A stretch of DNA of 48,180 nt from Minisyncoccota bacterium (GCA_030583765.1 CP129474.1:471168-519347); one strand, 5' to 3'; counted from the first letter of the stretch, positions 2,781 through 23,659 are shown. Notes: generated from the sequence alone by a model not told the origin. A program made the numbers and translations.

Positions 2781-4270
<1,490 letters not shown>

Positions 4271-16582: not shown

Positions 16583-16654
16583 GGGCGATTAGTTCAGTGG
16601 TAGAACGCTGTCCTGATAAGACAGAGGTCCTAGGTCCGATTCCTAGATCGCCCA
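16583..16654 (+). tRNA. tRNA-Ile (anticodon GAU), complete
   Basis: Manual cloverleaf: GGGCGAT/ATCGCCC acceptor, GTTC/GAAC D stem, CTGTC-CTGATAA-GACAG anticodon arm, CTAGG-TCCGATT-CCTAG T arm, discriminator A, no encoded CCA. Confidence 0.9.
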
Positions 16655-16684
16655 CATTCAGGTTGTATGCAGTCTCACTGCCAG

Positions 16685-16905: not shown

Positions 16906-16978
16906 GGGCTCATAGCTCAGCTGGTAGAGCGCCTCATTTGCAATGAGGAGGTCACCGGTTCGAATCCGGTTGGGTCCA
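16906..16978 (+). tRNA. tRNA-Ala (anticodon UGC)
   Basis: Manual cloverleaf: GGGCTCA/TGGGTCC acceptor with the G3:U70 identity pair, CCTCA-TTTGCAA-TGAGG anticodon arm, ACCGG-TTCGAAT-CCGGT T arm. Confidence 0.92.
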
Positions 16979-17025
16979 CAAACCGTCCACTGACACTTCT
17001 TGTACTGCACACTGTGCGCAGTACA

Positions 17026-18576: not shown

Positions 18577-20598
18577 ATGCTGTCCGCCATGGATATTCTT
18601 CAATTTTCGTTCCTGGCGTCCCTTGCGTCGCTGGGATATGGCGCCATACTCATTGCTGGCGTTTTAAAAAAGTCGGCAGGGAATGAGCGCATGCGAGATA
18701 TCGCCAATGCCATTCAAGAGGGAGCGGAGGCATATTTACGCCGCCAGAATATGACCGTTCTCGCGGTTGGGCTCGTGCTCATGCTCGTTTTAGGAACGTG
18801 GCTCGGCACCGCAATGGCCGCCTCGTTTGCGGTGGGCGCATTTGCGTCTGCACTCGCCGGCTACATTGGTATGATGGTTTCTGTACGTGCAAATGTGCGC
18901 GTTGCTGAAGAAGCTCGTCATGGAATTTCTCGGGCATTTGCTCTTGGATATAAGGGTGGGGCAGTAACCGGATTTTTCGTAGTTGGACTTGCTCTCCTCT
19001 CTTTAACGGCAGTATTTTGGGCTACGGGAAATGTAAAAGATCTCATCGGTCTCGGGTTTGGGGCGTCCCTTATTTCTGTTTTCGCACGACTTGGCGGCGG
19101 CATTTTTACAAAAGGCGCTGATGTTGGTGCGGATATTGTAGGAAAAGTTGAAGCAGGCATTCCAGAGGATGATCCGCGCAATCCAGCAGTGATCGCGGAC
19201 AACGTCGGTGACAACGTCGGTGACTGCGCTGGTATGGCTGCCGACCTTTTTGAGACCTATGTTGTCTCGGCGATCTCTGTCATGCTGTTGGCCCATCTTT
19301 TAGTGCCCGCTGCTCCGGCGCTCGTCTATGTGCCGCTTCTTATCGGCTCCGCCGCTGTTCTCGCCTCGCTTATCGGCTCCCTCTTTGTTCGCCTCTCTTC
19401 TGGAGGATCTATTATGGGTGCGTTGTACCGTGGCTTGGGCGTTGCCTCTTTGATTTCAGTGGCATTTTTCTGGTTTATCGCTCAAGGCATGGACGGCCTT
19501 TCTGAGCTCTCTTTCGCGATTGGCATGGAGGTTACCGCGCTTCAGGTGTTTTGGTGTATGGTAACAGGCATTGTGGTCACTGCGCTCATGATGATGATCA
19601 CGGAGTACTATACTTCAAAGAGCTTTTATCCTGTGCGCGCTATTGCGCACGCCTCGACAACGGGTCATGGCACGAATGTGATTATGGGTCTTGCTATGAG
19701 TAAGCAATCAACCGCGATGCCGCTCATCGTCATCGTAGCTGCTATGTATGGTGCCTATTCGCTTGCTGGTCTGTACGGTGTAGCGCTTGCAACAATGAGC
19801 ATGCTCTCTCTTGCGGGCATTGTGGTCGCTATTGATGCGTTTGGCCCTATCACCGACAATGCTGGTGGGATCGCAGAGATGGCGGAGCTTCCTGATGAGG
19901 TGCGTGACGTAACCGATCCGTTGGATGCTGTTGGCAACACTACTAAGGCGGTGACGAAAGGGTACGCGATTGCATCTGCTGGGCTTGCGGCAATTGTGTT
20001 GTTCGCTGCGTATACTCAAGAGCTTGCCGAGTTTGGACGCATTGTGCAGTTTGATCTATCCGATATCCGCGTGCTTGTCGGGCTCTTTATCGGAGGCATG
20101 ATGCCGTACTTGTTTGGCTCTATGGCCATGCAGTCTGTGAGTCGTGCGGGCTCTGCTATCGTTGATGAAGTGCGTCGTCAGTTCCGGGAAATCCCTGGTA
20201 TTATGGATCGCACCGCGATTCCAGAATATGGTGCTGCGGTAGACATCGTCACTCGTGCGGCAATCCGTGAAATGACACTCCCAGCACTTGTGCCCATAGT
20301 ATTTCCTATTGTGGTCGGCTTCACATTGGGTGCAGAGGCGCTCGGCGGTCTTCTCGTGGGCGTGATTATCACGGGCTTATTTGTTGCCATCTCAATGACT
20401 TCAGGCGGGGGCGCTTGGGATAACGCGAAGAAGTTTATTGAAGAAGGCAACCACGGTGGCAAGGGATCGGATGCCCACAAGGCAGCGGTCACGGGTGATA
20501 CGGTAGGAGATCCGTACAAAGATACCGCGGGCCCTGCGATCAACCCAATGATCAAGGTGGCAAACATCGTTGCTCTGCTCATTGCTCGGTTTATCTAA
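18577..20598 (+). CDS. hppA: Membrane-bound H+(or Na+)-translocating pyrophosphatase
   Basis: [31 protein letters not shown] and [18 protein letters not shown] motifs. About 16 TM segments. Confidence 0.93.
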
Positions 20599-20721
20599 AA
20601 TAAAAAGTGGCTACCCTCAGCATGGCTGTGGATAACCACATTTTTCGACCGCCTGCGGCGGAACTCAAGGATCAAGAAACCAACAGATCCAAGGGTTCAA
20701 GACCGCAAGGGTCGATTACTG

Positions 20722-21618
20722 CTACACGAAGCCCGAGACGGAACCGTAGTAGCCGTGCGCATAGTCGAACCAGTACGTGCCGAACTTGGCCTCGCCGTCG
20801 CTGAAGTAGAAGACCGGCGCGTGCGAGAAGCGGCCATCGCCGTCGGGATCGTCGAACTCGTCACCCGAGCAGTCCATGTCCAGCTCCTCCCAGCGAACGA
20901 GTCGCTCGGGGTGAACCAGCACGATGGAACCGACCGCGAGGCTGGTCAGACCGAACTCGTTCTGCACAAAGACCTCGCGCGCCCGGCGAACCGAACGACC
21001 GCGATGCCGAAGCCCCAGCTGTGCTGCGATGATCAGGATGTCGCCCGGCTGCTTCTCCGCGACGAGATCGAGCGCATGCGCCGTGCGAGCCGAAACTCGC
21101 AACTGCGCCGGCGTGATCTGGCCGTCACGGTAGTTGTAGAACGAACGCGACTCCCCGATCTTCGTGTGCACGAGCTGAACGGCCCGGCAGTACTTGTCGG
21201 CGGGATCGGTCACCTCCGGGAAGTACTTCACGGCGATGGCGTCCACCGAGGGAACCGCGAACCATCCTTCGGCTCCTTCGGGGAGCGCGGGCAGGTTCTT
21301 GGCGTACTCGAGCGCCTGGGTCGGATCGAGACCGAAGATCGTGGCGACTGCCTTGATCTGGTCGACGATCGGCTTCGGGCCCTTGTACTCCTTCGGGTAC
21401 GTGTAGCTGGAACGGACTTCCTCGTCGGCGTACCGATCGGACTGGGACAGCTCGGCGATGAGCTTGGCAATCCCGTCCTGCAGTTCGCCGCCGCGCTCGT
21501 TGAGCCGCTGTGCGCGGGAGTCATCGAGCTTGGACTTGTTGTACGCGGCCTCGAAGAGACCGGTTGCGTGGAGACCTTTCGGGTCTCTGCTGGTGATCAA
21601 TGTCTGTGACATCGTCAT
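20722..21618 (-). CDS. DGR target (variable) protein, no signal peptide, VR at the C-terminus
   Basis: 298-aa GC-rich ORF (about 60-65% GC in sampled lines). The last 42 codons are the VR. The SD AGGAGG abuts the first ATG, so the real start is probably M3 at 21612. Confidence 0.85.
   Translation of the reverse strand: MTMSQTLITSRDPKGLHATGLFEAAYNKSKLDDSRAQRLNERGGELQDGIAKLIAELSQSDRYADEEVRSSYTYPKEYKGPKPIVDQIKAVATIFGLDPTQALEYAKNLPALPEGAEGWFAVPSVDAIAVKYFPEVTDPADKYCRAVQLVHTKIGESRSFYNYRDGQITPAQLRVSARTAHALDLVAEKQPGDILIIAAQLGLRHRGRSVRRAREVFVQNEFGLTSLAVGSIVLVHPERLVRWEELDMDCSGDEFDDPDGDGRFSHAPVFYFSDGEAKFGTYWFDYAHGYYGSVSGFV
20724..20849 (-). repeat. DGR variable repeat (VR), 126 nt
   Basis: The reverse complement aligns with TR 22080-22205. 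There are 12 mismatches, all at TR adenines. It ends at the T of the target stop codon. Confidence 0.9.
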
Positions 21619-22079
21619 CCTCCTTCTTCGTTGAATTACCCGAACCGCTCGGGCGAGCGTCTTGCCTCAACATGAGACGAGCACGATAGGTACAAGAGGT
21701 CTTTTACCCATTGTGCTCGGCTCAAATAAGGCCTTTTCAAAGAACTAACTTTGACGCTTAAGTATAGCAAAAATAAGCGGTTTTGTCAAGAATGGAACCT
21801 GTCCCCTTCTATGCTGTATAATATGCTTGAGCTTAGGCTAATGTACAGCCGTCCACGGATTGCTGTCGCCGAACTCTATCATTTCAACGATAACAACCAG
21901 AGTCCCGGAGACTACGGTTTCCGCGAGCGTGTTGTGTTGAGGAGATACTGCTTGCTTTCGCCTAGTGCAGGTTCCTTACCGGATGCTGCCGAATTAAATT
22001 CAGGACTGAGAGAATATAGGTCTGTTTCCAACAGGCAGTAAATCTCAAGGTTCGGTGCCACGGATGGGTGGAAGCAATT

Positions 22080-22205
22080 ATCCCGACGACGATGACCGCT
22101 TCTCGCACGCGCCGATCTTCAACTTCAACGACGGCAAGGCCAAGTTCGACACGAACTGGTTCGACAATGCGAACGACAACTACGGTTCCGTCTCGGGCTT
22201 CGTGT
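22080..22205 (+). repeat. DGR template repeat (TR), 126 nt
   Basis: It has adenines at all 12 positions that differ from VR, is rich in AAC/GAC codons, and is not part of a credible gene. Confidence 0.9.
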
Positions 22206-22223
22206 CGAAGTCTCTCCAAGACA

Positions 22224-22252
22224 GAAAGGGTATCCATTTTGGATACCCTTTC
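22224..22252. terminator. 13-bp hairpin between TR and the avd 3' end (terminator-like on the + strand)
   Basis: gaaagggtatcca-ttt-tggataccctttc is followed on the + strand by T-rich gtttattcggctttgatt. It lies 19 nt after the TR and 3 nt from the avd stop. Confidence 0.6.
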
Positions 22253-22254
22253 GT

Positions 22255-22605
22255 TTATTCGGCTTTGATTGAGCGTATCCACCCGCCCAACATTCGGCCT
22301 ATCTCATCTATTGGTGCTTCAAGCGCAATGTACTTCTTATTGTCTATGGTTTTCACATCCTTCATGAGTCGGATAAACATGCGAAGCATATTGAGTTTGA
22401 GGCTGGCACGTTCAAGTGTTGGGAGTTTTTTCTCCCGGTGCTCTCCGCTCGCCTGCATGATTGCTTCCAACACATCGAGTATCGCGCACTCGCATCGTTC
22501 GAAGACCGTGAAGCGATCTTGTTTGGGTACGAGTTTCCGGTACTGATTGAAGGTTTTGTACAAGTCGTAAGACTTTTTGAAGATTGGTATATCGAATTCG
22601 TTCAT
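22255..22605 (-). CDS. avd: DGR accessory variability determinant (Avd-like four-helix-bundle protein)
   Basis: 116 aa. IPIFKKSYDLYKTFNQYRKLVPKQDRFTVFERCECAILDVLEAIMQA matches the S23-IVS/four-helix-bundle pattern of Avd proteins. Confidence 0.8.
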   Translation of the reverse strand: MNEFDIPIFKKSYDLYKTFNQYRKLVPKQDRFTVFERCECAILDVLEAIMQASGEHREKKLPTLERASLKLNMLRMFIRLMKDVKTIDNKKYIALEAPIDEIGRMLGGWIRSIKAE

Positions 22606-22609
22606 AGTT

Positions 22610-23659
22610 ATGAAGGTTTATAAGAATCTATTTCAACAAATCGTCTCGCTAGAAAACCTATTCACGGCATGGGAAGAATTTCGAGCTGATAAGCGGCACA
22701 AAGAAGATGTCCAGGAGCTTGAATTTAATGTGGAGCAAAATCTTTTTGCGCTTTATCGAGAGCTGGTCTCGAAAAAGTACACTCACAAGCCGTATTTTGG
22801 CTTCTATATTCGTGACCCTAAGGTGCGACATATCCATAAGGCCACGGCCCGGGATCGGGTTTTGCATCATGCGGTGTTCCGCATTTTGAACCCGCTTTTC
22901 GACAGGACTTTTATCCCCACTTCCTTTTCTTGTCGGGTTGGTAAGGGATCGCATAAAGGAGTTATGGCATTGGAACAAATGATTAGGGCTGAGAGCAGGA
23001 ATTTCACTCGGCCGTGTTTTGTCCTGAAGTGCGACGTGCAAAAGTTTTTTGATTCGATTGATCACCAAACCCTTCTGGCCATTCTTCGTAAAAAAATAGC
23101 CGACATGGACACCATGTGGCTGATGGAAAGAATTATTGAAAGCTTTTCGACCGGACGGACTACCTTGTTCGACCGCCAAGGTGTGCCGATTGGCAATCTC
23201 ACCTCCCAGCTCTTCGCCAACGTGTACATGAATGAGTTTGATCAGTTCGTCAAACAACAATTGCGAATCAAACACTATGCCCGCTACACGGATGATTTCG
23301 TGATCGTCTCCACCGATAAAAAAGAGCTGACGAATTTGCTTGATCCTATACAGCAATTTCTCGGTGGCTGTCTGAAGCTGAAACTCCACCCCAAGAAAAT
23401 ATCTATTCGCCCCTGTCATCAAGGCATCGATTTTCTTGGTTATGTGGCCTTGCCTTACCATCGGCTGATGCGCCCCAAAACAAGGCGTCGAGTATTCCGC
23501 AAATTGAGAATACGGATTTCCCAATACCGGGCCGGAGCGATCAGCGAGGACGCTCTTTCCCAGTCTCTGCAATCTTATTTGGGTGTGCTCTCTCATGCGA
23601 ATACTCATCAACTGAGCGAGAACCTAAAGAACCAGTTTTGGTTTTGGCTGCATATGTAA
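22610..23659 (+). CDS. DGR reverse transcriptase
   Basis: FDSIDH (motif 3), PIGNLTSQLFANVYMNEFD (the DGR-diagnostic SQ motif) and YTDDFVIV (YxDD). An alternative TTG start lies at 22577. Confidence 0.9.
   Translation: MKVYKNLFQQIVSLENLFTAWEEFRADKRHKEDVQELEFNVEQNLFALYRELVSKKYTHKPYFGFYIRDPKVRHIHKATARDRVLHHAVFRILNPLFDRTFIPTSFSCRVGKGSHKGVMALEQMIRAESRNFTRPCFVLKCDVQKFFDSIDHQTLLAILRKKIADMDTMWLMERIIESFSTGRTTLFDRQGVPIGNLTSQLFANVYMNEFDQFVKQQLRIKHYARYTDDFVIVSTDKKELTNLLDPIQQFLGGCLKLKLHPKKISIRPCHQGIDFLGYVALPYHRLMRPKTRRRVFRKLRIRISQYRAGAISEDALSQSLQSYLGVLSHANTHQLSENLKNQFWFWLHM

Follow-up and report, generated by a model that had tools for sequence, protein, structure and literature searches.

Evidence for a chromosomal diversity-generating retroelement of the CPR type, with a structured RNA leader, in a Minisyncoccota bacterium

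The diversity-generating retroelement (DGR) of Bordetella phage BPP-1 and the DGRs of bacteria of the candidate phyla radiation (CPR) are the closest described systems to the locus analyzed here, which lies in a 48,180-nucleotide stretch of the genome of a Minisyncoccota bacterium (GCA_030583765.1, CP129474.1:471168-519347; this whole stretch is called the window below, and positions are counted from its first nucleotide). The BPP-1 element has the order mtd-avd-TR-brt, in which TR is the template repeat and brt encodes the reverse transcriptase (RT), bRT. For CPR bacteria, Wu et al. 2018 (PMC5758913) describe an architecture B3, with TR, avd on the reverse strand and RT on the TR strand, together with variable repeat (VR) classes UVR1-6 of unassigned fold. 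A CPR-restricted DGR clade 2, whose targets are without recognizable domains, was described by Roux et al. 2021 (PMC8144416). Our analysis indicates that the window very probably contains a chromosomal DGR of CPR/Patescibacteria, with the core TR-(avd)-RT and a target gene inverted upstream; the complete locus spans 3.1 kb and all of its parts are intact. The element itself is of a known type that is common in CPR bacteria. The features of its template RNA and of its target appear not to have been described yet: neither the leader RNA nor the target 3' flank treated below is mentioned in the passages of Wu et al. 2018 (PMC5758913) or Roux et al. 2021 (PMC8144416) considered here.

Compared with BPP-1, the locus shows the same adenine-specific transfer from TR to VR, a VR at the 3' end of the target gene with an adenine-free shared block following, an Avd protein, and an RT that matches bRT over its full length and retains IGxLTSQLFANVY. 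Both also have a stem-loop just 3' of TR and a duplex that closes the region next to TR. The differences are that in the window avd stands between TR and RT in reverse orientation, with the target inverted upstream, that the large structured RNA domain stands 5' of TR whereas that of BPP-1 stands 3' of TR (the spacer), and that the target appears to be a soluble cellular protein without detectable similarity to Mtd or C-type lectins. With the CPR DGRs (the CPR set of Wu et al., clade 2 of Roux et al.) there is no difference in kind. The locus shares with them its cellular and chromosomal setting, the Patescibacteria host lineage and the core TR-(avd)-RT, and its target is likewise without a recognizable domain or transmembrane segment. 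The arrangement is that of B3, with TR at 22080-22205 (+), avd at 22255-22605 (-) and RT at 22610-23659 (+).

The repeats and the protein-coding core

TR (22080-22205, + strand) was aligned with the reverse complement of VR (20724-20849, - strand), which forms the final 42 codons of the target gene (20722-21618, - strand). The computed alignment runs ungapped over 126 nt, with 114 positions identical and 12 differing, and every difference falls on an adenine of TR (7 A>G, 4 A>T, 1 A>C). If 12 mismatches were placed at random, the probability that all of them land on the 29 adenines among the 126 TR positions is 2.7e-9. An earlier note on this DNA had counted 12 mismatches, all at TR adenines, and had listed the codon changes; when the alignment was counted by TR base, no non-adenine mismatch was found within 22080-22205, the number was exact, and all twelve changes were correct (GAC>GGC four times, AAC>TAC three times, and AAC>AGC, AAC>CAC, AAT>TAT, ATC>GTC and AAG>GAG once each). 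In the frame of VR, 10 of the TR adenines occupy first, 19 second and none third codon positions. They are spread over 21 codons, including five AAC and one AAT (six AAY), and about 10^17 peptides are reachable from them. Both strands of the window were also scanned for a second VR with the TR adenines as wildcards, and only the known VR was matched.

At their 3' ends the two repeats carry GGTTCCGTCTCGGGCTTCGTGT, a 22-nt G/C-rich block without adenine that is the same in TR (22184-22205) and VR (20745-20724), as the earlier note had claimed for an invariant 3' block; the flanks diverge just beyond it. By analogy with IMH/IMH* of BPP-1 (IMH, initiation of mutagenic homing), this IMH-like block at 20724-20745 (-) may mark the 3' boundary of VR replacement. 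The repeat ends given in that note hold for the 126 nt, but similarity continues for 6 nt, to 22211/20718, where TR reads CGAAGT and VR AGCAGT with 2 extra mismatches. One of these is TR A22208, which faces C in VR. The VR flank reads CGCAG in every family member inspected and TR there reads CGAAG; since this contrast of A in TR with C in VR is common to all of these, it looks like a fixed difference at the TR/VR boundary. The other is TR C22206, which faces A in VR and is thus a non-adenine change within the boundary region. This C>A change, not templated by adenine, turns the TCG codon of most homologues into the TAG stop of the target gene (20722-20724), and therefore the target is 2 aa shorter here; most homologues end in ...GFVSQ* or ...GFLSQ*.

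The RT gene (22610-23659, +) encodes 349 aa, which match RVT_1 (E 1.5e-22) and phrog_1423 (E 1.6e-119). The closest solved structure is 8ub7_A (171.6 bits, E 2e-49), aligned over the full length (residues 2-345), while the best group II intron RT structure reaches 81.3 bits and E 6.5e-22. From its residue numbering, 8ub7_A is most probably the Bordetella phage RT bRT, because it is 328 residues long and I181, G182 and Q187 fall in IPIGSLTSQ as numbered by Handa et al. (bioRxiv 10.1101/2023.10.23.563531). This segment of bRT is kept in the window RT as PIGNLTSQLFANVY, and YTDD stands where bRT reads YMDD. The motif of the IGxxxSQ type, PIGNLTSQLFANVYMNEFD (IGNLTSQ), and YTDD, on which the earlier note had based its assignment to a DGR RT, are thus both present, and the full-length match to bRT agrees with that assignment. 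Against group II, retron and DRT/defence RT models the protein stayed under all cutoffs (for group II, 153 vs 300). The RT most likely starts at ATG 22610 and not at TTG 22577, because the former is aligned with bRT residue 3 and with the start in a related locus, L001.

Between TR and RT, avd (22255-22605, -) lies on the strand opposite to both. The 116-aa protein, taken for Avd-like in the earlier note, scores 83.9 bits against NCBIfam NF033474 DivGenRetAVD ("DGR protein Avd", an equivalog with a curated cutoff of 80) and 59.5 bits against Pfam bAvd (cutoff 40; E 5e-16), and it matches PHROG 3206, "Avd protein of DGR". The start codons of avd and RT are divergent and 4 nt apart (22603-22612), an arrangement kept in related loci, in which they are a few nt apart or overlapping. 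Neither gene has a clear Shine-Dalgarno sequence, nor a promoter of consensus type that lies outside the coding sequence of its neighbor. Because these starts leave no intergenic promoter, read-through from the TR promoter into RT is plausible.

Related loci were collected by a target-relative scan with one genome per species, which gave 39 loci, most of them labelled Patescibacteria; a 171-kb ENA contig supplied one more. All parts are present together in 15 loci, window included. TR/VR mismatches fell exclusively on TR adenines in L001, L003 and L012 (21/21 each), L009 and L027 (13/13 each), L022 (23/23) and L023 (12/12), and with one exception in L005 (19/20), L008 (12/13) and L018 (22/23). 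In L014, L021 and L030, two target paralogues each are matched to one TR. The core TR(+)-avd(-)-RT(+) is constant across the 15 loci. The target lies downstream of the core's mirror image in the window, L001, L003 and L027, and upstream on the TR strand in all others.

A structured RNA upstream of the template repeat

Directly 5' of TR stands a conserved segment of about 250 nt (21829-22079, +). A TATAAT box at 21817-21822 (+), just upstream of its conserved start, is the probable -10 element of the TR-containing RNA, and a -10-like hexamer, often TG-extended, occurs at the same place in most related loci. This leader is 66-80% conserved in 14 of the 14 other DGR loci, even where the RT is only about 50-60% identical. 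Folding of the alignment with RNAalifold gave 59 pairs in eight helices, all on the + strand: H1 (21836-38/21868-70), H2 (21843-53/21858-67), H3 (21894-97/21931-34), H4 (21903-12/21917-26), H5 (21952-63/22066-77), H6 (21967-77/21979-89), H7 (22003-13/22043-53) and H8 (22020-22/22034-36). Compensatory double changes occur in 42 of the 59 pairs. Standard pairs are formed in 96.1% of the cells, compared with 80.0 +/- 0.8% after shuffling (0 of 500 reached the observed value), and pairing falls to 33-48% when the partners are slid by 1-3 columns. The minimum free energy of the leader has a z-score of -2.6. With an nhmmer profile of the leader, matches were obtained solely beside TR modules or their remnants. 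The leader is a structured RNA supported by covariation. A 96-aa open reading frame (ORF) in this region (21751-22041) was considered and rejected as coding, since the lengths of the indels that separate the loci are not divisible by three and the conservation is that of helical covariation.

Structured RNAs beside RT genes have been described as RT-1 to RT-19 by Weinberg et al. 2017 (PMC5737381), with RT-10 linked to the BPP-1 spacer, and the leader resembles RT-7 (RF03028) and RT-10 in this position. At Rfam gathering thresholds no RNA family was found in the element or the 14 related loci. The leader hairpin at 21896-21938 (CCAGAGU-stem-AGNGUG) can be aligned with RT-7 model positions 1-43, and 19 nt replace positions 44-185. 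Its score of 23.6 bits is below the gathering score of 116.8, which places it outside RT-7, and no related locus reaches the threshold of any RT motif.

On the other side of TR, the tail CGAAGTCTCTCCAAGA (22206-22221, +) is complementary to a leader motif, TTGAGGAGA (21937-21945, +), here called M, and M is also complementary to the leader segment 21877-21887. The tail core CGAAGT-YWCTC is common to 14 of 15 TR modules, L025 being different. For M and the tail, 85.7% of the cells are paired, vs 81.4% when shuffled (3 of 500 reach the observed value) and 52-70% when slid. Double changes are seen in four of the pairs, above all in L005 and L018; the covariation support is moderate. For M and the leader segment, 82.6% of the cells are paired and the covariation is weaker than for M and the tail. 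This column-based test was weakened by register shifts of the alignment, and duplex energies were therefore added for each locus: the cognate M duplexes have means of -11.9 and -10.5 kcal/mol, compared with about -6 with shuffled partners. By analogy with BPP-1, M is proposed to be the counterpart of the primer strand. The tail is followed by a 13-bp stem-loop with a T-run (22224-22252, +), terminator-like in a terminator scan, which abuts the stop codon of avd. A hairpin of 10-15 bp with unrelated sequence follows the tail core by 10-16 nt in all 15 loci (z = -2.5 to -7.9); its T-run is weak in some of the related loci.

From these parts the following course may be proposed. An RNA of about 430 nt would be transcribed on the + strand from about 21829 and would comprise the 250-nt leader, the 126-nt TR, the conserved tail and the terminal stem-loop. 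RT (22610-23659) and Avd (22255-22605) would bind this TR-containing RNA, and RT would copy TR into cDNA with random bases opposite the 29 template adenines. The cDNA would then replace VR (20724-20849) at the 3' end of the target gene, with the adenine-free block as the 3' boundary, so that up to 21 codons (about 10^17 peptides) could be re-randomized in the C-terminal 42 residues of the target. In this scheme, both ends of the transcript, the way in which priming occurs, the function of the shared block, activity at present and what the target binds are inferences.

The order of elements in the RNA was then read against that of BPP-1. According to Handa et al. (bioRxiv 10.1101/2023.10.23.563531), the BPP-1 RNA consists of an upstream "stop" strand, TR, an Avd-binding stem-loop, a primer strand, 2 nt, a downstream "stop" strand, a short stem-loop, adenosines, a 13-nt "Thumb Ring" single strand, and finally a long RT-binding stem-loop with two interior loops. 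The window has, in turn, M, an AC linker, the 5' strand of H5, the H6 stem-loop, a conserved A-rich 13-nt CGAATTAAATTCA, the H7/H8 long stem with interior loops, the 3' strand of H5 (which stops 2 nt before TR), TR, the M-complementary tail and the stem-loop. The same order results when that of BPP-1 is cut once, between Avd stem-loop and primer strand. The elements from primer strand to RT-binding stem-loop lie 3' of TR in the BPP-1 spacer, whereas in the window the same order is found 5' of TR; 3' of TR there are only the template-side tail and a hairpin like the Avd-binding one, at the position that equals that of the BPP-1 Avd-binding stem-loop. On the basis of this order we tentatively suggest, as a possibility held with some reserve, that the DGR RNA in this CPR lineage may be a circular permutation of that of the Bordetella phage. 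The survey of Handa et al. covered 40 nt upstream and 100 nt downstream of TR; it would have missed the leader, because just 40 nt upstream of TR were examined.

The target gene, its product and its 3' flank

The target (variable-protein) gene at 20722-21618 (-) encodes up to 298 aa. Its start is most likely the second ATG, at 21612, because this lies 7 nt after AAGGAGG and gives the 296-aa form found in other assemblies. A promoter-like site upstream (21761-21789, -) reads TTGACA-17-TATACT, TG-extended, with 11 of 12 consensus matches. The target has 2207 homologous clusters. The best 120 of these 2207 are 71-91% identical, and among these 120 every one with a taxon name comes from a metagenome-assembled genome (MAG) of Parcubacteria/Patescibacteria. 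In the family alignment, the N-terminal ~255 aa are highly conserved (71-96% identical) and the tail encoded by VR shows hypervariable positions within a fixed scaffold, SGDEF.P....F...P.F.F..G.V.F............GS.SGF.

No family was found for the single target sequence in Pfam, NCBIfam, PHROGs or PADLOC, nor for 112 family members in Pfam, and single-protein and profile searches for sequence relatives in the PDB gave nothing below E 0.6. Hydropathy revealed no transmembrane segment or signal peptide (maximum over 19 residues 1.39 on the Kyte-Doolittle scale), and the target is apparently a soluble, cytoplasmic protein. AlphaFold (AF2) on 32 near-identical sequences gave an unusable model with a predicted local distance difference test score (pLDDT) of 49. 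A second AF2 model used an alignment of 112 sequences, for which a 43%-identical paralogue from a divergent branch of the family served as seed, and reached a pLDDT of 91.7 and a predicted template modelling score (pTM) of 0.83. Foldseek with this model gave no significant match, the best E values being 1.8 in the PDB and 0.53 in BFVD; a few C-type-lectin-like venom proteins were among the PDB matches, at probabilities of at most 0.06. The lack of a fold match accords with UVR1-6 of Wu et al. 2018 and with the clade 2 targets of Roux et al. 2021.

The base composition of the target gene is distinct: its GC content is 63.5% (84% at third codon positions, GC3), vs 46% for avd and RT and 52% for the window. 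Across the family, with the target genes of L001-L033 compared, the GC content stays at 54-64% even where the flanking DNA of the host is 35-45% GC. The bias is not specific for adenine, because A and T are both depleted at third positions. A long antisense ORF (20755-21609) was set aside as an expected by-product of a gene with 84% GC3. Between the window and L001, the target without VR (20725-21612) is identical at 96% of amino acids and 89% of third positions, and the RT (22610-23656) at 79% and 52%, respectively. These sequence identities suggest that target genes either were exchanged more recently than the RT module or are under strong constraint at synonymous sites. Two small stand-alone ORFs, one of 106 aa in Bradyrhizobium manausense (L037, 5962-6282) and one of 122 aa in a Parcubacteria MAG (L039, 5998-6366), also contain the N-terminal ~60 residues of the target (LITSRDPKG...AQRLNERG...), and these residues are therefore regarded as an independent domain. 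The sole Bradyrhizobium match covers just this N-terminal domain.

Downstream of the stop codon, a conserved block of about 60 nt (20662-20721, -) carries five CTTG repeats. In the 82-nt stretch 20640-20721 (-), CTTG occurs 5 times vs 0.44 expected (P about 9e-5). The block is kept in 29 target genes of the family, some of them without a DGR within 6 kb; target-site recognition and a role as 3'-untranslated region (UTR) element are both possibilities. It is followed by a short G/C hairpin, CCGCC-GCA-GGCGG (20649-20661, -), whose stem shows compensatory changes in many related loci and which is absent from some relatives. By analogy this hairpin may correspond to the inverted repeat that follows IMH in BPP-1, with the difference that the BPP-1 repeat adjoins VR whereas the hairpin is ~60 nt away from it. 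A terminator-like hairpin, GTGGTTATCCAC...GGGTAGCCAC with a T-run (20599-20641, -), probably ends the target transcript and is shared tail-to-tail with the H+-pyrophosphatase (H+-PPase) gene. Its stem, GGGYTATCCAC/GTGGATARCCC, recurs with the T-run across related loci.

Mobility, activity and alternative explanations

L001 is 81.6% identical to the window in nucleotide sequence over exactly 20591-23653, and its flanks are unrelated (methyltransferases, a transposase). From this exact match between unrelated flanks it is concluded that the cassette moves as a unit. In the window, its neighbors are RmuC and H+-PPase on one side and a CBS protein, Pth, signal peptidase and HisRS on the other. The element is regarded as chromosomal because it is set among such housekeeping genes and because a 16S rRNA gene is found at 2784-4267. 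That gene is full-length; tRNA-Ile(GAT) (16583-16655) and tRNA-Ala(TGC) (16906-16979) are not adjacent to it but 12 kb downstream. Since these tRNAs are 12 kb away from 16S and no 23S gene is present in the window, the rRNA operon is unlinked. In L001, a LOOT RNA (RF03000, 75.8 bits) is found at 3073-3197, about 750 nt beyond the RT gene.

About 12 loci have a target without TR, avd or RT within 6 kb. L033 (7022-7330) keeps an intact leader and a TR truncated after ~55 nt, and has lost avd and RT; L004 (5571-5615) keeps a 45-nt leader remnant downstream of the target gene. Therefore, loss of the DGR beside a retained target is common. Members of the target family are also encoded on five contigs classed as viral in IMG/VR (L048-L052), of which L048-L051 carry leader RNA as well; these may be CPR phages or misclassified cellular contigs. 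Records titled "uncultured Gammaproteobacteria bacterium" carry this gene family too (L002, L005, L011, L020, L022 and L030). These titles, and one "Margulisiibacteriota", are probably labelling artefacts, the former of the submitting pipeline.

The earlier note had claimed that all parts of an active hypermutation system are present within about 3 kb. The parts are indeed present and intact, and VR was rewritten in the past, but "active" is an overstatement; six independent assemblies of this strain carry the same VR. Over 2.6-8.5 kb, VR and TR included, the window is matched at 100.000% identity by six Logan contigs, each from a different sequencing run; with zero differences anywhere, they provide no time depth. 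In L041, a strain 94% identical in the target region, VR differs from the window TR at 17 sites, 16 of which are window-TR adenines, and the pattern of these sites is different from that of the window VR. Diversification has therefore taken place since the two strains separated.

Several observations have to be counted against a DGR as described above. No match that would confirm a C-type-lectin or Ig fold of the VR domain was obtained, since the model with pLDDT 91.7 gave no Foldseek E better than 0.5 in the PDB or BFVD. Within what is presumed to be the recognition region, the VR 3' flank has the non-adenine C>A change that corresponds to TR 22206. The consensus scan gave no promoter for RT or avd, whose start codons are 4 nt apart, and the identical VR in the six contigs offers no direct sign of current activity. 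It seems nevertheless highly improbable that the repeat is an ordinary duplicated gene fragment beside an RT of a group II intron, a retron or a defence system. Like every RT, this one does match models of group II, retron and DRT RTs below their thresholds; against such an origin stand the adenine-only mismatches, the exclusion of TR adenines from codon position 3, the Avd equivalog, bRT as the best full-length match, the IGxxxSQ motif and the recurrence of the pattern in 15 loci. Some more weight, although we consider it unlikely, is due to the possibility of a relic: the DGR would look intact but have fallen silent, with a VR that was rewritten at some earlier time and is now fixed. The window and the six Logan contigs, seven independent assemblies, have an identical VR, the non-templated C>A in its 3' flank created an early stop, and decay happens in relatives (L033 without avd and RT, ~12 targets without a DGR within 6 kb). 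On the other hand, no damage is seen in the ORFs of RT, avd and target, in TR, in the leader helices or in the promoter-like boxes; assemblies are consensus sequences, in which minority VR variants would be hidden; and six contigs without any difference have no time depth.

For the RNA, the alternative is that the leader is only a 5' UTR or a recruitment element, and that priming and RT-binding elements lie 3' of TR in a transcript that is antisense to avd, which would correspond to the standard TR-spacer-RT layout. Outside avd there is no space for a separate RT promoter, which makes read-through from the TR promoter across the antisense avd into RT plausible; the T-run after the TR hairpin is weak in some loci, and the pairing of M with the tail has moderate covariation support. 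However, the leader is conserved above what is expected of a UTR and has 42 covarying pairs, its element order fits that of BPP-1 after one permutation, and the hairpin with T-run that follows TR in the window scores as a terminator. Taken together, a mere 5' UTR or recruitment element is somewhat doubtful, but it deserves serious consideration beside the circular permutation proposed above. If the permutation is true, it would account for avd sitting reversed directly after TR, and the leader segment able to pair with M would offer an off-state.

As a DGR, the locus is one more confirmed example, probably of a well-populated CPR clade, and brings no conceptual change. Its value is that of a clean and compact reference locus for the function of the domain-less, apparently cytoplasmic targets of CPR bacteria, here a family that comprises over 2000 sequence clusters and whose confidently predicted structure matches no known fold. 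A candidate for what recognizes the target is the 3' flank that this family conserves, and the leader gives a concrete and testable answer to the question of how a TR-(avd)-RT element supplies the RNA elements that in the Bordetella phage are placed between TR and RT.

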